Assembly (NCBI RefSeq): GCF_055900595.2
Contig: NZ_CM148325.1
DNA length: 64,000 bases
Direction: 5' to 3' (one strand)
Shown here: one piece after another, positions 15,691-59,161 of the stretch
Numbering within the stretch: position 1 is the stretch's first letter
Layout of the letters: each line of letters begins with the position of its first letter
Notes under the pieces: generated by a model
Database searches by the model: none
What the model was told of the DNA's origin: nothing
What the model saw: the letters and a program-made list of their open reading frames with translations, nothing else
Translations under genes and position numbers: made by a program

Positions 15691-15964
15691 TTATAATTGA
15701 ATTAATCCACGGATGCGATAGTTGAGATCTTACATATTGTTGGTTAAAGAGATGTAGATCAAATTGATCGTAATTAAGCTTTTTTGATTATGTCCGAATT
15801 CGGACAAATGCTTTATAAAAAAGGGTTTTAGCTTCCTATTCTTCAAGGAAGGAGGGCGAAAACAAAGCTGACAACCTTATTTTTCCGCCCTCATTTCGAG
15901 GCAGCATTTTGTGCTCTGTTTAAAATTTGTGATCACAGTGTGATTTTCACAAAAGCCACACTAT

Positions 15965-16858
<894 letters not shown>

Positions 16859-17181: not shown

Positions 17182-17237
17182 ACAGAATCTGCGAAATCAA
17201 CTGGTAACAAACAGTAGAGTCAACTCAGTGCGTACTT

Positions 17238-18797
17238 TTATTTAATATCTTTCACGCGCATACCGTTGATCTGTTCATCCGTGATGGTGTTACCCGCTTT
17301 AAAGTAATCAACCACCGCGTGATAAACGTAATAACCGCCCGTCGTATTGCGCGCTTTACCCTCGGTAAACGCGGTAAAACCATCTCCACCATCAGCAAGG
17401 AAACTCTGAGTAGCAATGTGGTAAACCGTCGCATCTTCAATCGGTTTGCCATTCAGCGTCAGCGAGATAACCCGCTGACCAACCGGCTTGCTGCTGTCGT
17501 ACTTCATTTCCAGGCCTTTCGATACCTGTAAAACGCCATTACTTAAACTTGCGCCGTGTTCCATCAAACCGCGTAATTGTTTACCCGTGAGTTCCATCGT
17601 CACCAGTTCGTTGGGGAACGGGAAGGTACTGATGACGCCACCCATCGTAATTGCACCCGCCGGGATCTCATTGCGAATCCCACCAGAGTTGGTTAACGCC
17701 AACTGGGTATTTTTACCCGCCGCTACCAGTAAAGCGTCCGCCGCCAGGTTCCCCAGGGATGCCGATTCACCATAGGCACGTTTTAATTCAACTGGCGATT
17801 GCGCCACCGTTTGCTGCACGACTTCATCCAGCTTTTTATTCCAACTATCAATCACCTGTTTTGTTTGCGCATCGGGCTTCCACTCGTCGGCGTAAAGGGT
17901 TTTAAGCTCGAAGTTTTTCACCGTAAAAGTGTGCGGTTTCTCTTTGTAGTCGAGAACCAGTTTACCCACATCAATCCCACCGCTGTCAGTGGAGAGGATG
18001 AGCGTATTGCCGACTTTAATCGGTTCCGGCGTACCCACATGTGCATGCCCGGTGATCAAAATATCCAGCCCTTTCACCTGACTTGCCGTCTGAATATCTT
18101 TATCCAGTGCGCGGCGCACATCTGTGCCCCCCATACTGGACTGGCGGGCCGGAACACCTTCGTGAATCAGCGCAACGGTCAAATCAACCTTGCCTTTGAG
18201 TTCATCGATATAACGTTGTAGCCATTTAATTTCATCACGCGCCTCAATACCCACTCGCGTTGCCGCAGATACCGTATCATTAAAGGCAAATACACCGTGC
18301 AAACCTATAACACCAATTTTCACGCCGTCTTTTTCAATAATGGTATATGGCTTATCCCAGAATGATTTACTGCTGTTCTGATAAAAAACATTACCCTGCA
18401 CAATCGGGAATTGTGCCTGACTCAACTGTAATAACGTATTGTCCCAGCCGTGATCAAATTCATGATTACCTATAGTGGCCGCATCGAACGGCATGGTATT
18501 CATAATATCGATAATCGCCTTGCCTTTAGTCAGGCTGCTGATATACGGCCCGGTAAAATAGTCACCCGCATCAAAAAACCAGGTCGCTTTGTTTTTAGCT
18601 TTTTCTTGTTTAACAAGCGTAGTGATATTTGCCCAGCCGCCAATATCCCGTTTACCCTCAGCAATCCACGGCACTTTATAGGGCTCTACATGTGCGTGGA
18701 GGTCATTGGTATAAATAATGGTGACATCTTTGGCGCAGGCCCAAAACGGCAGTGTTAATGCGATACCCGCAGCAAGCATTTTAATTTTCATAAACAA
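17238..18797 (-). CDS. Island paralog 1: secreted 5'-nucleotidase/UDP-sugar hydrolase-like metallophosphoesterase (UshA family)
   Basis: N-terminal signal peptide; metallophosphatase motifs DLHAH, DAGDYF, GNHEFD, HEG, GHAH; C-terminal 5'-nucleotidase-like domain; no K-12 counterpart at this locus. Confidence 0.8.
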
Positions 18798-18850
18798 TCC
18801 CTTCCAGTGAGATAAAGGATTGCTACATTACGTTCTGAAAGGCTTTTTTA

Positions 18851-18866
18851 TGTGAGAATACTCACA
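18851..18866. promoter_or_regulatory. Perfect CRP-binding palindrome in the divergent intergenic region between island paralog 1 and the Zn-ribbon gene
   Basis: tgtga-gaatac-tcaca equals the TGTGA-N6-TCACA CRP consensus, with an A/T-rich flank. Confidence 0.55.
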
Positions 18867-18923
18867 TCCAGAGGCAATAACTGTAGGACAAAATCGACGA
18901 CCTTATGAAATCGTTGGTGATAT

Positions 18924-20051
18924 ATGTCAAATCTGTTTGCGATTAATGTCTGTAAAACGTTCGGTTGTCGAAATTTGGGATTGGCCTCATCGGAAGATTA
19001 CAGTTGGCCAGACTATAAACTGGGTTTTCCGGCACTGCACTGCCAGGCATGCGGAAGTTACCCCCCTTTGTTTGATGAACAACAATTTCGTGACTGGTTG
19101 TCAGTTCACATGACTGCGTGTGCCATAGAAACAGGGCATTTTTGTCCATCATGCTATTGTAAAGAAAAGATTTTTTATGGCCACAACCCGCATGGAACAC
19201 AACGCGTTCAATGCCGTTCATGCAAAAAAGTCTGGACTCCGAAACAGCAGCCAGCAAGAGAAATTACGTATCCCCAGTCCATTGAAACCGTTCAACTGTT
19301 CATGCCCTTTCAAGGAGCCAGCGCACTACAAAAGCTCTATGTTTTAGTCAGTCTTGACGCCACTCGTGGCAACATCCTTCATCTCTCCACGAATTATACG
19401 CAACATCAGACAGGAGACAGTCTGCGGTACAGTTACAGAGGCAATACAGAACCAACTGAGCACCATAGCGATATTGTGCAGAGGGTAGATATGCGTGAAG
19501 CGCAATTCTTGCGCCGGAGCCAGTTCGATGAAATTCAGTATGGCAGTGCTGTGCTCAAGCGCAATGGCAAGGGAGCCATACTACGCCCGGTTATCACGGC
19601 TCACGGGCATTTCAGAATACTGAAAATCCGCTTTCCACATGTCAAAACGCATATCATTTCACACGAATGTTTTCTGAGAGGCGCAATTATTACAGCCTGG
19701 GCAGATCAGTTCCGCCAACAACAAGGCGAACTTTGGTTCGTAGAAGAAGAAATCAGCGACCGTAACGCTGATATTCCCTGGCATTTTCAGGGAACGACAT
19801 ACCATGGTTGGTGGCAAAATCAGTGGCAACGCTGGGGGCAGGGGAATAACAGCAAGATGGTCTGCCTGCTCACAGGAGTCTCCTTAGAAAGGGGCGCAAA
19901 TGTTTCTCTGGCAACCAGTCGTTGCTTTATCACATGGCTGACAGACCAACACGACTTTACCCAAAGCGCGTTATTATCCGCAGGTCGCGTAACGAAAATG
20001 CTGACCTCACTGGCGTTAAAATACAATGAATCGCTCACTCCATCTTGTTAG
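18924..20051 (+). CDS. Cys-rich Zn-ribbon protein resembling an IS1595/ISXO2-family transposase; catalytic integrity uncertain
   Basis: FCPSCYC…(12 aa)…RVQCRSCKKVW follows the CPxCG…RYxCKxCxKxF transposase Zn-ribbon pattern; a downstream stretch (THIISHECF…FVEEEISDRN) loosely resembles the end of a DDE domain. Confidence 0.55.
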   Translation: MSNLFAINVCKTFGCRNLGLASSEDYSWPDYKLGFPALHCQACGSYPPLFDEQQFRDWLSVHMTACAIETGHFCPSCYCKEKIFYGHNPHGTQRVQCRSCKKVWTPKQQPAREITYPQSIETVQLFMPFQGASALQKLYVLVSLDATRGNILHLSTNYTQHQTGDSLRYSYRGNTEPTEHHSDIVQRVDMREAQFLRRSQFDEIQYGSAVLKRNGKGAILRPVITAHGHFRILKIRFPHVKTHIISHECFLRGAIITAWADQFRQQQGELWFVEEEISDRNADIPWHFQGTTYHGWWQNQWQRWGQGNNSKMVCLLTGVSLERGANVSLATSRCFITWLTDQHDFTQSALLSAGRVTKMLTSLALKYNESLTPSC

Positions 20052-20169
20052 TCAATACACTCGACAAACGACCATAAATTAATGGGATCACTATTTCTCA
20101 TTTAATTAAATATATGAATGTATGACTGAAAAATATAATCACAGTCAATGTTTAATTAATAACATTATT

Positions 20170-20185
20170 TGTTACTAAGATCACA
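20170..20185. promoter_or_regulatory. CRP-like site (one mismatch) in the AT-rich promoter region upstream of island paralog 2
   Basis: tgtta-ctaaga-tcaca, about 95 bp upstream of the ATG at 20281. Confidence 0.3.
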
Positions 20186-20280
20186 TAATACTTTCCTGAC
20201 CTATGCTTACATAAAAATAAGACACGGAGTTCCTTTTATTTAAATAATTCAACCAATGTAACAACCCCTATCAAGGAGGG

Positions 20281-21834
20281 ATGATGAGAACTGTATTTAC
20301 GACTTTATCAGTCATATTCAGCGTGATGTTTTCTCACAGTATACTAGCTCAGGACGTTACTATTTATTATACGAATGATATTCACGCACATGTCAATCCG
20401 GCAAAAATTCCCGCTGTTGATAAGAACAGACTTGTAGGTGGTATGGCTAATATTGCAGGCATCGTTAATGAAGCGAAGAAAAAAAACAAAGATGTCTTTT
20501 TCTTTGATGCAGGCGACTATTTTACCGGTCCGTATATCAGTACCCTGACCAAAGGTGAAGCTATTATTGATATCATGAACACCATGCCCTTTGATGCGGT
20601 GTCCGTTGGTAATCACGAGTTCGATCACGGCGTGCCCAATATGGTATCTCAGTTATCAAAAGCAAAATTCCCCATTCTGCTGGGAAATATTTACTACACC
20701 GATACAAATAAACCAGTTTGGGATCATCCGTGGACTATTATCGAAAAAGATGGTTTAAAGATTGGTGTGATTGGATTGCATGGTGCATTCGCTTTCTATG
20801 ATACAGTCGCGGCAAAAGCACGTGAAGGCGTAGAAGCCAGAGACGAAATTAAATATTTAAATAAAGCACTTGCAGAATTAAAAGGTAAAGTCGACATTAC
20901 CGTTTTGCTAATTCACGAAGGTGTTCCGGCGCGTCAATCAAGCTTTGGTAGTAAAGATGTGGAGCGGCTACTACAGGCAGATATTGAGACAGCTAAAAAA
21001 GTGAATGGTGTTGATGTCTTAATTACCGGTCACGCACATGTCGGAACACCGCAACCAATAAAAGTTAATAACACATTAATTGTATCTACCGATGCATACG
21101 GCACCGACATCGGAAAACTTGTGCTTGATTACAATCCGAAAACGAAGAAAATTGATAGTTATAATGGTGAGTTAATCACCATCTTCGCAGATCAATTTAA
21201 ACCTGACACCATCGTTCAAAATACTATCGATAAATGGAGTGCAAAGCTTAACAAAATAACACAGGAAGTTGTCGGCCATTCTCCCGTAGTTTTAACACGT
21301 GAGTATGGCAGTTCTTCTTCTACCGGTAACCTTATTCTTGATGCAATGATGGAAAAAACACCAGATGCCATTGCCGGATTTCAAAATAGCGGTGGGATGC
21401 GAGCTGATTTTCCTAAAGGTGATATCACGCTGGGAGATGTTATTAGCACATTCCCCTTTAATAATGACCTCATCGAGATGGATTTGACGGGCCGCGATCT
21501 CAAATCGTTGATGACGCATGCAACCAATCTAACTAACGGTGTGTTACAGGTTTCAAAAAGCGTTGCGGTTGTCTATGACAGCAAAAAACCACTGAACCAA
21601 CGGTTAATCTCTTTCACCATTAACGGCAAACCCGTGGAAGATAATCAAACATATCGTATTGTCACGCACTCCTTTTGTGCCAGTGGTGGTGACGGTTTTG
21701 AAGCATTTTTGAATGGAAAAAATGTGAAGACGATACCGGGAACAACCTCGGCGGAATCTATCATCGATTATTTCAAAAATCATAAACCTGTCACCCCAGA
21801 CTTAACTAAACGAGTAATGGACGTCGCCAAATAA
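20281..21834 (+). CDS. Island paralog 2: secreted UshA-family 5'-nucleotidase-like metallophosphoesterase
   Basis: Signal peptide; DIHAH, DAGDYF, GNHEFD, GHAH motifs; AT-rich codon usage. Confidence 0.8.
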   Translation: MMRTVFTTLSVIFSVMFSHSILAQDVTIYYTNDIHAHVNPAKIPAVDKNRLVGGMANIAGIVNEAKKKNKDVFFFDAGDYFTGPYISTLTKGEAIIDIMNTMPFDAVSVGNHEFDHGVPNMVSQLSKAKFPILLGNIYYTDTNKPVWDHPWTIIEKDGLKIGVIGLHGAFAFYDTVAAKAREGVEARDEIKYLNKALAELKGKVDITVLLIHEGVPARQSSFGSKDVERLLQADIETAKKVNGVDVLITGHAHVGTPQPIKVNNTLIVSTDAYGTDIGKLVLDYNPKTKKIDSYNGELITIFADQFKPDTIVQNTIDKWSAKLNKITQEVVGHSPVVLTREYGSSSSTGNLILDAMMEKTPDAIAGFQNSGGMRADFPKGDITLGDVISTFPFNNDLIEMDLTGRDLKSLMTHATNLTNGVLQVSKSVAVVYDSKKPLNQRLISFTINGKPVEDNQTYRIVTHSFCASGGDGFEAFLNGKNVKTIPGTTSAESIIDYFKNHKPVTPDLTKRVMDVAK

Positions 21835-21868
21835 AATATCATTTATCAGTCTATTTATTTAACAAGGA

Positions 21869-23494
21869 ATGCGAATGAAAACAGTGCAGCGTACTTTACT
21901 TGCCGCAACATTGCTGACTATTTTTTCGGTCTCAGCCATGGCGCAGGATGTCACGATTATTTATACCAATGATCTTCACGCTCATGTGGATTCTTATAAA
22001 GTGCCGTATATCGCAGACGGAAAACGCGACATTGGCGGCTTTGCCAATATATCTACTTTAGTAAAACAAGAGAAAGCGAAAAATAAAGCCACCTTTTATT
22101 TTGATGCTGGAGACTATTTCACCGGCCCTTATATCAGCAGTCTGACAAAGGGCGAAGCAATAATTGACATTATGAATACCATGCCTTTTGACGCAGTATC
22201 AATCGGTAATCATGAGTTTGACCATGGCTGGGATAATGCCCTGCGACAATTAAGCAAAGCGAATTTTCCTGTTTTATTGGGCAATGTTTATCATAAAGAG
22301 AGTGAGAAACCCTTCTGGAACAAGCCCTACACCATCCTGGAAAAAGATGGCATCAAGATTGGTATTATTGGGCTACACGGCGTATTTGCATTTAATGATA
22401 CGGTCTCGGAGCTCTCTCTCCAGGGACTCGATAATGACAATAATAACCGCTTTGATAAATCTTCCGAGACCCTTAAGAATCAGGGGATTGAAGCACGTGA
22501 TGAAGTGAAGTATTTGCAGCATTATATCGACGAGTTACGTGATAAGGTTGACCTCACTGTGGCGCTGGTTCATGAAGGCGTTCCGGCGCGTCAGTCCAGC
22601 ATTGGCAATACAGATGTTAGACGCGCTCTTGATAAAGATATTCAAACCGCTAGCAAGGTGAAAGGATTGGATATTCTGATTACCGGGCATGCCCACGTCG
22701 GAACGCCAGAGCCAATCAAAGTCGGCAACACCTTAATCCTTTCAACTGATAGTGGCGGTATCGATATTGGTAAATTAGTCCTTGATGTCAACCCTACAGC
22801 TCGTACCCATAAAATGAAGAGCTTTGAGCTGAAAACAGTTTATGCCGATGAATGGATACCCGATCCAACGACACAAAAAGTTATCAATGGCTGGAATAAA
22901 AAACTGGCGGATATTGTACGCCAACCAGTGGGTGAATCATCGATTGCATTAACTCGCGCCTATGGTGAGTCATCGCAACTAGGCAACCTGTTTACCGATG
23001 CAATGCTTGTCGCTGCTCCGACTGCACAGATTGCATTGATAAACTCCGGCAGCTTACGTGCGGATATAAATGCAGGCACGATTACCTTTGGCGACATTAC
23101 CAGTACATTCCCCTTCAAGAATGAACTTACTGAAATGGATCTCAGCGGTAAGGATCTGCGTAACCTACTGGAACACGGGGCATCGCTTACCAATGGCATC
23201 CTGCAAATGTCAAAAGGCGCAGAAATGCGCTATACCCCGCAGAAACCAGTAGGTCAGCGCATAGTATCTTTTAAAATTAATGGTGAAGAGATCGTTGATA
23301 CGAATATTTACCATGTTGCAACAACGACTTTCCTTGCACTGGGGGGCGATGGTTTTCTGGCATTCAAAGAAGGGAAAAATGTTCAGGTCCGCGCCGGAAA
23401 TAACATGTCCGATGTCGTGATCGATTATTTGAAGAAAGGCCACAAGATTACGCCTGCACAGGTAAATGAAATGCGGGTGGACGTTAGCAAATAA
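21869..23494 (+). CDS. Island paralog 3: secreted UshA-family 5'-nucleotidase-like metallophosphoesterase with a ~24-aa Asn/Asp-rich insertion
   Basis: Signal peptide; same motif set; closest by eye to paralog 1 but with an extra ELSLQGLDNDNNNRFDKSSETLKN segment. Confidence 0.8.
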   Translation: MRMKTVQRTLLAATLLTIFSVSAMAQDVTIIYTNDLHAHVDSYKVPYIADGKRDIGGFANISTLVKQEKAKNKATFYFDAGDYFTGPYISSLTKGEAIIDIMNTMPFDAVSIGNHEFDHGWDNALRQLSKANFPVLLGNVYHKESEKPFWNKPYTILEKDGIKIGIIGLHGVFAFNDTVSELSLQGLDNDNNNRFDKSSETLKNQGIEARDEVKYLQHYIDELRDKVDLTVALVHEGVPARQSSIGNTDVRRALDKDIQTASKVKGLDILITGHAHVGTPEPIKVGNTLILSTDSGGIDIGKLVLDVNPTARTHKMKSFELKTVYADEWIPDPTTQKVINGWNKKLADIVRQPVGESSIALTRAYGESSQLGNLFTDAMLVAAPTAQIALINSGSLRADINAGTITFGDITSTFPFKNELTEMDLSGKDLRNLLEHGASLTNGILQMSKGAEMRYTPQKPVGQRIVSFKINGEEIVDTNIYHVATTTFLALGGDGFLAFKEGKNVQVRAGNNMSDVVIDYLKKGHKITPAQVNEMRVDVSK

Positions 23495-23506
23495 TAAAAA
23501 AATTAT

Positions 23507-23541
23507 AATGCCATTCATTCACTGAATGGCATTATTTTTCT
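23507..23541 (+). terminator. Rho-independent terminator or attenuator between paralog 3 and the Tsx-like gene
   Basis: aatgccattcattcactgaatggcatt hairpin followed by atttttc. Confidence 0.55.
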
Positions 23542-23572
23542 CTAAATCAACAATAAATAATGAGATATATTT

Positions 23573-24433
23573 ATGTGTATAAAAAAGCACGGGATAGCTT
23601 TATCGATTCTATTAATACCTTGCATTGGAAACGCTCAGGAAATTAAAAGTGAGGAAGGCTGGTTACATCAAAGCTTGAATGTCATTGGTCGCACAGACTC
23701 TCGCTTTGGCCCAAGGCTGACTAACGACCTCTACCCTGAATATACTGTAGCAGGAAGAAAAGACTGGTTTGATTTTTATGGTTATGTTGATCTACCAAAA
23801 TTCTTTGGCGTCGGCAGTCACTATGATGTTGGGATCTGGGATGAGGGCTCACCACTATTTACGGAAATAGAACCTCGGTTTTCCATTGACAAATTGACCG
23901 GATTAAATCTTGCGTTCGGCCCTTTTAAAGAATGGTTCATTGCAAACAACTATGTCTATGATATGGGTGACAACCAGTCATCCCGGCAAAGTACATGGTA
24001 TATGGGGCTTGGTACAGATATCGACACGGGTCTACCAATTAAGCTTTCTGCCAATATATACGCCAAGTATCAGTGGCAAAACTATGGTGCCGCTAATGAA
24101 AATGAATGGGACGGATATCGATTCAAAATAAAATATAGCATTCCTCTTACCCATTTATTCGGAGGGCGATTGGTATACAATAGTTTTACTAACTTTGATT
24201 TTGGCTCCGATCTTGCGGACAAATCACACAATAATAAACGAACCAGTAATGCTATTGCTTCAAGCCATATCCTTTCCCTGCTATATGAACACTGGAAATT
24301 TGCATTTACACTACGTTATTTTCACAACGGTGGACAATGGAATGCTGGGGAGAAAGTTAACTTCGGAGATGGTCCATTTGAATTAAAAAACACAGGATGG
24401 GGAACCTATACTACTATTGGTTATCAATTTTAA
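23573..24433 (+). CDS. Tsx-like outer-membrane nucleoside-specific channel (Tsx/OmpK family paralog)
   Basis: Signal peptide; long collinear similarity to E. coli Tsx (…KDWFDFYGY…[17 protein letters not shown]…[16 protein letters not shown]…[26 protein letters not shown]…); C-terminal aromatic residue. Confidence 0.8.
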
Positions 24434-56117: not shown

Positions 56118-56376
56118 TTCCATCACCTGTCGGCATATTTTTAAGGGCTGATGCGTAATTCCTCAACGGAGCATCAGTGTTGATGAAAACGAAGATAGAC
56201 ATTCATTTAATCAATAAAAGTGATCAAAACCACATCAATTGAAACACCGTTTTATTTTTATCGGATCATTGTTTTTATTTTGAAATTGATCACAAAAAAA
56301 CCACCGCCGTTGGCGATGGTTCATTTTTTAAGCTGATATGCGGCGTAAACGCCTCATTGCAGCAGGCGGCAAATGA

Positions 56377-57281: not shown

Positions 57282-58316
57282 ATGAGTAACGCGATTACGA
57301 TGGGGATATTTTGGCATTTGATCGGCGCGGCCAGTGCAGCCTGTTTTTACGCGCCGTTCAAAAAAGTAAAGAAATGGTCATGGGAAACCATGTGGTCAGT
57401 CGGTGGGATTGTTTCGTGGATTATTCTGCCGTGGGCCATCAGCGCCCTGTTACTACCGAATTTCTGGGCGTATTACAGCTCGTTTAGTCTCTCTACGCTG
57501 CTGCCTGTTTTTCTGTTCGGCGCTATGTGGGGGATCGGTAATATCAACTACGGCCTGACCATGCGTTATCTCGGCATGTCGATGGGAATTGGCATCGCCA
57601 TTGGCATTACGTTGATTGTCGGTACGCTGATGACGCCAATTATCAACGGCAATTTCGATGTTCTGATTAATACCGAAGGCGGACGCATGACGTTGCTCGG
57701 CGTTCTGGTGGCGCTGATTGGCGTAGGGATTGTAACTCGCGCCGGGCAGTTGAAAGAGCGCAAGATGGGCATAAAAGCCGAAGAGTTCAACCTGAAAAAA
57801 GGGCTGGTGCTGGCGGTGATGTGCGGCATTTTCTCTGCCGGGATGTCCTTTGCGATGAGCGCCGCAAAACCGATGCATGAAGCAGCTGCCGCACTGGGCG
57901 TCGATCCACTGTATGTCGCTCTGCCAAGCTATGTTGTCATCATGGGAGGCGGCGCGATCATCAACCTCGGTTTCTGCTTCATTCGTCTGGCAAAAGTGAA
58001 GGATTTGTCGCTAAAAGCCGACTTTTCACTGGCAAAACCGCTGATCATTCACAACGTGTTACTCTCGGCACTGGGCGGTTTGATGTGGTATCTGCAATTC
58101 TTTTTCTATGCCTGGGGCCACGCCCGCATTCCGGCGCAGTATGACTACATCAGCTGGATGCTGCATATGAGCTTCTATGTATTGTGCGGCGGTATCGTCG
58201 GGCTGGTGCTGAAAGAGTGGAACAATGCAGGTCGCCGTCCGGTAACGGTGTTGAGCCTCGGTTGTGTGGTGATTATTGTCGCCGCCAACATCGTCGGCAT
58301 GGGCATGGCGAATTAA
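57282..58316 (+). CDS. rhaT: L-rhamnose-proton symporter
   Basis: [51 protein letters not shown]… 344 aa. Confidence 0.9.
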
Positions 58317-59161
58317 TCTTTCTGCGAATTGAGATGACGCCACTGGCTGGGCGTCATCCCGGTTTCCCGGGTAAACACCACCGAAAAATAGTTACTATCT
58401 TCAAAGCCACATTCGGTTGAAATATCACTGATTAACAGGCGGCTATGCTGGAGAAGATATTGCGCATGACACACTCTGACCTGCCGCAGATATTGATTGA
58501 TGGTCATTCCAGTCTGCTGGCGAAATTGCTGACGCAAAACGCGCTCACTGCACGATGCCTCATCACAAAATTCATCCAGCGCAAAGGGACTTTTCAGGCT
58601 GGCCGCCAGCCGGGTAATCAGCTTATCCAGCAACGTTTCGCTGGATGTTGGCGGCAACGAATCACTGGTGTAACGATGGCGATTCAGCAACATCACCAAC
58701 TGCCCGAACAGCAACTCTGCCATTTCGTTAGCAAACGGCACATGCTGACTACTTTCATGCTCAAGCTGACCGATAACCTGCCGCGCCTGTGCCATCCCCA
58801 TGCTACCTAAGCGCCAGTGTGGTTGCCCTGCGCTGGCGCTAAATCCCGGAATCGCCCCCTGCCAGTCAAGATTCAGCGTCAGCCGCTCCGGGCAATAAAT
58901 AATATTCTGCAAAACCAGATCGTTAACGGAAGCGTAGGAGTGTTTATCGTCAGCATGAATGTAAAAGAGATCGCCACGGGTAATGCGATAAGGGCGATCG
59001 TTGAGTACATGCAGACCATTACCGCGCCAGACAATTACCAGCTCACAAAAATCATGTGTATGTTCAGCAAAGACATCTTGCGGATAACGGTCAGCCACAG
59101 CGACTGCCTGCTGGTCGCTGGCAAAAAAATCATCTTTGAGAAGTTTTAACTGATGCGCCAC
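58313..59161 (-). CDS. rhaR: AraC-family rhamnose regulator RhaR (start uncertain; ORF extends to 59326)
   Basis: C-terminal AraC HTH; start placed at the GTG giving [13 protein letters not shown]… (282 aa); a 312-aa form starting at 59251 is also possible. Confidence 0.8.

Follow-up and report, generated by a model that had tools for sequence, protein, structure and literature searches.

Organization and distribution of the nt1-hyp locus

The window, by which we mean the whole 64-kb stretch of DNA that was analysed, derives from E. coli, and in the 4.7 kb that were compared (17200-21900) it does not differ from strain E200086. It contains a five-gene insert between the core genes metF (15965-16855, minus strand) and metL (24650-27082, minus strand). 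The insert consists of nt1 (17238-18791, minus strand) and four genes on the plus strand, namely hyp (18924-20051), which encodes a hypothetical protein of 375 amino acids, nt2 (20284-21834), nt3 (21875-23494) and a paralog of tsx (23573-24433). An earlier note on this DNA, made from the sequence alone, had taken the flanking genes to be nucleotidase genes accompanied by a Tsx paralog, and this assignment is borne out by the family models. The three nt products are 5'-nucleotidases that gave full-length matches to models of the UshA/CpdB/NadN type (E 1e-44 to 1e-58) and that contain both the metallophosphatase domain and the 5'-nucleotidase C-terminal domain. All three stayed far below the equivalog cut-offs of the curated models. 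For nt1, a metallophosphatase of the UshA/CpdB family, the scores against the NCBIfam cut-offs were 150 against 600 bits for UshA and 102 against 486 bits for CpdB. As judged by these models, nt1 represents a distinct, unnamed subfamily of the metallophosphatase/5'-nucleotidases. Its N-terminus resembles a signal peptide when judged by eye, with a putative cleavage site before KD, and the product is probably periplasmic. The co-directional genes nt2, nt3 and the tsx paralog (20284-24433) probably form one operon, and a matrix scan of the 40- and 78-bp gaps within this cluster revealed no strong CRP match.

The locus is carried by 1841-1844 of 5426 complete E. coli genomes (about 34%), including those of E. 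coli Nissle 1917, NC101 and strain 042. The five-gene form was found in 658 of the locus-positive E. coli genomes, while most others, such as strain 042, have a two-gene form with only nt1 and hyp. In this two-gene form, hyp and the convergent metL gene overlap by 37 nt at their 3' ends (strain 042; L003, 7869-7905; L006 and L007, 3369-3405). Within E. coli, the hyp alleles differ by up to 28% at the protein level, and the nt1 proteins are 97-98% identical. The region has been listed as GR31 (metL..metF) in ExPEC in a genome paper of 2026, in which a role in nucleoside processing was guessed only (PMC12928451). The literature on the locus, its proteins and the Klebsiella CRP regulon yielded no transcription start sites and no ChIP, SELEX, EMSA or crp-mutant expression data for it, and the K-12 datasets cannot contain the locus.

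The divergent nt1-hyp pair also occupies the metF-metL interval in Citrobacter, Klebsiella, Pseudocitrobacter, Superficieibacter, Kluyvera, S. arizonae and other Escherichia species, and it has other locations in Enterobacter, Silvania, Pluralibacter and some genomes of Escherichia and Citrobacter. Since several genera have the pair at the same place, the apparent 'island' probably reflects retention versus loss and is not specific for E. coli. Some Escherichia and Citrobacter genomes have two nt1-hyp copies (L018 and L012, both from strain SCPM-O-B-8794; L033 and L011; L037 and L025). One of these modules is then located at metF-metL, and the other one elsewhere, with nt1, nt2, tsx and nt3 co-directional behind a single CRP box.

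A perfect CRP-type palindrome between nt1 and hyp

The 132-bp gap between nt1 and hyp contains the palindrome TGTGAGAATACTCACA (18851-18866), which matches the CRP core TGTGA-N6-TCACA at 10 of the 10 core positions. The corresponding predicted CRP site of 22 bp extends from 18848 to 18869, with a dyad centre at 18858.5 that is 67 bp away from the nt1 ATG and 65.5 bp away from the hyp ATG. An exact site between divergent genes is what the earlier note had reported, and a search of both strands showed it to be the only exact match in the 64-kb window. Dinucleotide shuffles gave a chance expectation of 0.04 exact cores per window, and at least one match was present in 4 of 100 shuffles. Sites with at most one core mismatch were less rare, six being seen in the window where 1.8 were expected. 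The core stands in the context ...ggctttttta TGTGA GAATAC TCACA tccagagg..., and in the window allele the arms reach 7 bp (ATGTGAG-N4-CTCACAT). The A/T-rich flank that had been ascribed to the site is present on the left (TTTTTTA) but not on the right, where the sequence is TCCAGAGG.

For scoring, we used an approximate, symmetrised CRP matrix built from 17 classic sites, the scores of which are indicative only. On this matrix the palindrome reached 12.1 bits, which is within the range of the training sites (7.7-17.9 bits) and corresponds to rank 8 among about 64,000 positions. The GAATAC spacer is far from the CRP consensus spacer, and this explains why the site ranks only eighth. The best match in the window was TATTTTGAAATTGATCACAAAA (56276-56297, 18.1 bits) upstream of kdgT, and the fourth-best one was TTTTGTGCTCTGTTTAAAATTT (15907-15928, 14.7 bits) between metF and katG. 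Further top matches were located upstream of glpF, which has a CRP site, upstream of cytR, and in the rhaS-rhaB, sodA-rhaT and ptsA-frwC intergenic regions. The latter three regions and the region upstream of cytR are all included in lists of CRP targets (PMC3105977). Several of the top matches thus fall in regions reported to bind CRP, which indicates that the approximate matrix behaves sensibly. In the identical strain E200086, rhaT (57283-58317) is annotated as a pseudogene with an internal stop.

Conservation of the box across genera

A scan with the hyp protein, using one genome per species, resulted in 30 loci, and the set used for comparison comprised 36 orthologous or paralogous loci. 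L004 (NZ_CP168949.1, 5046705-5059911) was left out, being a patchwork of truncated, unrelated gene fragments that include a partial hyp; this region from a 'complete' E. coli genome is most likely an assembly artefact. L047 was too short and was left out of the context comparison.

The box was present in all 36 loci, namely in perfect form in 28, with one mismatch in seven and with two mismatches in one. It is conserved in at least nine enterobacterial genera, the carriers being Escherichia, Citrobacter, Pseudocitrobacter, Pluralibacter, Silvania, Enterobacter, Klebsiella, Superficieibacter, Kluyvera and S. arizonae. In nearly all of the 36 loci, 58-59 nt separate its start from the nt1 ATG. 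By contrast with the half-sites, the central hexamer varies widely (GAATAC, GAGTAA, GAGCAT, GAAAAC, GTCTGC, CGTCTG and others). These differences were quantified per column in a subset of 21 sequences of alignment A2, where the ten half-site columns had 1.83 bits per column with 96% identity, five central spacer columns (18857-18861) had 0.28-0.62 bits, and the remaining intergenic region had 1.27 bits per column. Half-sites that are kept around a spacer that is free to change represent the pattern expected of a dimeric CRP-type site. In Enterobacter one half-site reads TGCGA, and the other half-site shows no compensating change, which fits a protein-binding site rather than a hairpin.

Across genera, the nt1 proteins are 87-98% identical and the hyp proteins 57-80%. 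Conservation drops sharply to the right of TCACA, and within the intergenic region the hyp-side flank at this position shows the lowest conservation. Other positions are conserved beyond what CRP needs, namely the TTA before the core, the G at 18856 and the block TTCTGAAAG at 18833-18841. This suggests that another factor may share the region. The TTCTGAAAG block, which is located between the CRP box and the -10 hexamer described below, has near-maximal information and is almost invariant across genera. In class II promoters, no particular sequence is normally required between the CRP site and the -10 element. When the block was compared by eye with the consensus operators of DeoR, Cra, PurR and CytR, none of these fitted well.

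Promoter geometry on the two sides of the box

On the nt1 strand the region reads TGTGAGTATTCTCACA-TAAAAAAGCCTTTCAGAACG-TAATGT-AGCAATCCTTTATCTCACTGGAAGGGATTGTTT-ATG. The hexamer TAATGT (18825-18830, minus strand) is separated from the CRP core by 20 bp, and it is a candidate -10 element of nt1, being a weak hexamer that was assigned from conservation alone. Indeed, a TAAnnT hexamer was present exactly 20 bp from the core on the nt1 side in 34 of the 36 loci (TAATGT, TAAAGT, TAACGT, TAACTT or TAAAAT), while the two loci without it at this offset are accounted for by 1-nt indels or represent the most distant paralog. The position of the -35 element is occupied in nearly all loci by ACATAA, which overlaps the CRP site and matches TTGACA at only one of six positions, and a generic sigma-70 scan detected no sigma-70 promoter in the nt1-hyp gap. 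From the usual gap of 7 nt after a -10 element, the transcription start of nt1 is predicted at 18817-18819 (minus strand). If TAATGT serves as the -10 hexamer, the CRP dyad would be centred at about -40.5 or -41.5. The fixed offset of TAAnnT together with the absence of a -35 element is the mark of a promoter that depends on an activator, and the layout is that of class II CRP-dependent promoters.

On the hyp side, the hexamer CAAAAT (18889-18894, plus strand), a conserved block in alignment A2, is a candidate -10 element at 22 bp from the core, which would place CRP at about -42.5. Class II activation towards hyp via this hexamer is speculative. The adjoining sequence upstream of the hyp ATG contains a conserved inverted repeat, ATCGACGA-N10-TCGTTGGT (18893-18918, plus strand; arms 18893-18900 and 18911-18918), which most genera have in the form ATCAACGA-N10-TCGTTGGT. 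The Shine-Dalgarno-like GGTGAT of hyp and the right arm of the repeat overlap. Pairing between the arms is possible in 96.9% of cells; the changes are one-sided A-to-G changes compatible with G-U pairing, and only one change is compensatory. The repeat folds weakly (z = -1.3). It could be an RNA hairpin that masks the ribosome-binding site or a DNA operator.

These features raise the question of which gene the box would serve. CRP might bind and act mainly on hyp, or serve as a repressor or roadblock, instead of activating nt1 from a class II position. Such a role would agree with the dyad being nearly equidistant from the two start codons, with the conserved CAAAAT 22 bp away on the hyp side, and with L039, where a box lies about 70 bp from a hyp homolog and far from the nupC-like gene. 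However, the invariant feature is the offset of the box to nt1 and its TAAnnT hexamer, whereas the hyp-side sequence directly after the box is poorly conserved. In addition, the hyp-proximal part of the gap and the 5' end of hyp are missing from S. arizonae, but the box and the nt1-side hexamer are retained there, so the deletion hits the hyp side only. In L044 the box is near a deoB-like operon and not near the hyp homolog. Furthermore, in loci of the Enterobacter type, nt1, nt2, tsx and nt3 follow one another closely in the same direction, and the nt1 box is the sole CRP-like box. The S. arizonae and Enterobacter arrangements tie the box mainly to nt1, and the conserved geometry favours nt1 over hyp as the main target. 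We therefore regard a main action on hyp, or a repressor role, as unlikely.

Taken together, CRP control of the nt1 locus is well supported by the sequence of the box, its position and its deep conservation. The reading that we favour, with a probability of roughly 70%, is that the palindrome is the cAMP-CRP activator site of a class II promoter for nt1.

A second CRP-like site upstream of nt2

The earlier note had pointed to a second near-consensus site upstream of nt2, and this site is indeed located at 20170-20185, where the core TGTTACTAAGATCACA has one mismatch. The 22-bp site (20167-20188) lies 106 bp upstream of the nt2 ATG. With 16.0 bits on the approximate matrix it holds rank 2 in the window. 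When its intergenic region, which has a G+C content of 28%, was shuffled 2000 times, this score was equalled once. The site is invariant in the three available E. coli alleles. However, these alleles are 96% identical over the whole intergenic region, and the invariance therefore carries no information. The hyp-to-nt2 arrangement was present in no other species among the loci compared.

The best sigma-70-like promoter nearby is AAGACA-18-AATAAT, with a -10 element that ends at 20248. This would place CRP at about -77.5, on the wrong helical face. Inspection by eye identified no good -10 element at a class I or class II distance from the site, the hexamer TACATA lacking the final T. As a CRP site, the second site is plausible but unproven.

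The CytR question

CytR-type nucleoside promoters are activated by CRP, repressed by CytR that bridges CRP dimers, and induced by cytidine, and the earlier note had proposed that the genes of the insert may be wired into this joint regulon. By function, the nucleotidases and the Tsx paralog would fit the CytR regulon, and the predicted position of CRP at about -40.5 is the one found at deoP2. There are also octamers that resemble CytR half-sites. GCTACATT (18822-18829), which overlaps the -10 hexamer, differs at one or two positions from the half-site GTTRCATT, while AATTCAAC (20246) and AATGTAAC (20255), near the start of nt2, each have one mismatch to AATGCAAC. The latter two are direct octamers (20246-20262) placed 9 bp apart, about 25-40 bp upstream of the nt2 ATG and about 77 bp from the second CRP-like site. 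They are identical in the Nissle allele, and the background of one-mismatch CytR octamers is 0.83 per kb.

In the known CytR cassette, two CRP sites lie 10-40 bp from each other and enclose the CytR half-sites (PMC3454398). This arrangement was found neither in the nt1-hyp gap nor in the intergenic region of the second site, which has one CRP match only. In the nt1-hyp gap there is a single conserved CRP site, since the second match (18913-18934, 11.6 bits) extends over the hyp start codon, is about 49 bp from the first when measured from core to core, and is confined to some Escherichia alleles. TGCAA or TTGCA half-sites occur in neither intergenic region of the insert. A scan for these half-sites and for the octamers GTTGCATT and AATGCAAC returned only octamers with one or two mismatches and thus no convincing operator in either intergenic region, but it also missed the cytR promoter, which was included as a control, and therefore had low power. 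For this reason, we relied on the rule of two CRP sites instead. A comparative CytR screen does not contain the locus, although that screen started from E. coli genes, probably of a strain without the insert (PMC3454398).

The presence of cytR in the window had been put forward as a link to the regulon. The gene is present (32337-33362), but it belongs to the core genome, at a distance of about 13 kb, and is not part of the insert. Because metF and metL are close to cytR on every E. coli chromosome, its presence in the window is a coincidence of the map. CytR co-regulation of the locus is thus not supported, and we consider a CytR-type promoter improbable. Of the proposed wiring into a CRP/CytR regulon, the CRP part is strongly supported by the exact core, the 36 loci, the fixed -10 spacing and the lack of a -35 element. 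The CytR part is not supported, with only one conserved CRP site and no TGCAA or TTGCA.

The hyp protein and its family

The hyp protein combines two Cys4 zinc ribbons of the InsA type with an RNase H-like core as found in integrases and transposases. No transposase family scored above threshold for hyp, the IS1 model reaching 19.6 against 100 bits. As hyp is a single-copy, syntenic gene, its product is probably a domesticated protein derived from a transposase. A profile search with the hyp family among 1.84 billion representatives identified only 173 relatives. The distant full-length relatives (E 1e-125 to 1e-35) adjoin, often divergently, genes for nucleoside scavenging. These neighbours are 5'-nucleotidases (L043, L045 and L048), a nupC-type transporter with a nucleoside phosphorylase (PNP; L039 and L040), a deoB-like, PNP and nupG-like operon (L044), or clusters of Tsx, sulfatase and radical SAM genes (L041, L048 and L049). 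CRP-like boxes were detected in 7 of 10 control regions of such distant loci (shuffle p ≤ 0.02), and one of these boxes is perfect (TGTGATCATACTCACA, 69 bp from the deoB-like start in L044). Their recurrence supports CRP control of this whole class of genes. It also raises the possibility that proteins of the hyp family act specifically on such loci, as regulators or partners.

The palindrome itself might be the operator of another regulator, such as the zinc-ribbon protein hyp acting on its own gene and on nt1, and only resemble a CRP box. InsA of IS1 is a DNA-binding repressor, and hyp is a conserved divergent neighbour with zinc ribbons of the InsA type; moreover, conservation extends slightly beyond the CRP core (TTA and G18856), and similar boxes are found near relatives of hyp. 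Against this, the half-sites and their 6-bp spacing are exactly those of CRP, and a central spacer that varies is usual for CRP sites. The box is also still present where hyp identity has fallen to 38-60% and beyond, it is kept in S. arizonae despite the truncated hyp, and in L041 it lies upstream of the Tsx gene at 3.5 kb from the hyp homolog. It is thus quite unlikely that the palindrome is an operator for hyp or a similar factor.

The view that the palindrome arose by chance or forms an RNA hairpin, without a role for a transcription factor, is hardly credible, because, although the window allele folds at -14.4 kcal/mol (z = -4.05), only 0.04 matches are expected per window and the box is conserved across many genera, while a hairpin or terminator was rejected on the grounds that the 7-bp arms and the outer stem are specific to the window allele (the others keep the 5-bp half-sites and the 6-nt gap), that the TGCGA of Enterobacter is uncompensated, that a T-run after the palindrome is absent on both strands, and that Rfam gave no match.

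A different role for hyp would be compatible with CRP control. The CRP box could be one half of a module with two inputs, in which the domesticated, IS1/IS1595-like hyp protein is the dedicated regulator or obligatory partner of the scavenging genes and takes the role that CytR has elsewhere. We put this forward tentatively, from the gene neighbourhoods of the distant hyp relatives and their CRP-like boxes, as an idea that is rather doubtful at present. The inverted repeat at 18893-18918 could then be the operator of hyp itself.

A model for class II activation of nt1 and its significance

In the class II reading, a cAMP-CRP dimer would bind the palindrome, with the dyad at 18858.5 overlapping the place of the missing -35 element of nt1, and CRP would stand in for the -35 contact. 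The -10 element TAATGT (18830-18825, minus strand), 20 bp past the core, would then direct a start near 18818, with CRP at about -40.5. At low glucose and high cAMP, CRP would bring RNA polymerase to the promoter, leading to expression of nt1. The product, probably a periplasmic 5'-nucleotidase, may convert external nucleotides to nucleosides that could enter the cell via channels of the Tsx type. The same CRP dimer may also aid the divergent hyp promoter (CAAAAT, 18889-18894; CRP at about -42.5).

Class II promoters such as galP1, with CRP at -41.5, and deoP2, with CRP-1 at -40.5, are well-known examples of this arrangement. Like other class II CRP promoters, the predicted nt1 promoter combines a single 22-bp CRP site over the -35 region with the absence of a -35 hexamer and with a -10 element 20-21 bp after the 16-bp core. 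It differs from them in that its start and its CRP dependence are predictions and in that the gene is an uncharacterised nucleotidase of the accessory genome. With the CRP/CytR regulon (deoCABD, udp, cdd, tsx, nupC, nupG and cytR; PMC3454398), the locus shares the theme of nucleoside and nucleotide scavenging, the Tsx paralog and the CRP position of about -40.5, but it lacks both a conserved tandem CRP site and the TGCAA/TTGCA half-sites. Among listed CRP targets are also nupC, nupG and cpdB, the latter encoding a periplasmic 2',3'-cyclic phosphodiesterase/3'-nucleotidase (PMC3105977). CpdB belongs to the same metallophosphatase/5'-nucleotidase superfamily as nt1 and is under CRP control, as predicted for nt1; however, nt1 is far below the CpdB cut-off and falls in its own unnamed subfamily.

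A single CRP site can serve divergent promoters, and 11 cases of a site common to two such promoters have been described, for example rhaT-sodA and araBAD-araC, as well as a model study by El-Robh and Busby (cited in PMC3105977). The nt1-hyp gap resembles these cases in having one central CRP box within 132 bp and candidate -10 elements at a class II distance on both sides. Activation in both directions would be an extrapolation from this layout, however, and the conservation of the geometry favours nt1. As for hyp, it differs from the IS1 InsA/IS1595-type and domesticated transposases in being a single-copy gene, syntenic across genera and below the thresholds of the transposase families.

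If the proposed reading is correct, a conserved and uncharacterised periplasmic nucleotidase would join the CRP regulon, in some E. coli lineages as part of a module of three nucleotidases and a Tsx protein. The nt1 genes would then be expressed under carbon limitation, when cAMP is high, which would fit the scavenging of extracellular nucleotides and breakdown products of DNA in the gut or the urinary tract. This would concern about one third of the complete E. coli genomes as well as Klebsiella, Citrobacter and Enterobacter. The regulatory logic is that of the textbook, and the finding therefore refines annotation and leaves concepts unchanged. The less expected lead is the hyp family, whose probably transposase-derived members appear to track loci for nucleoside utilisation.
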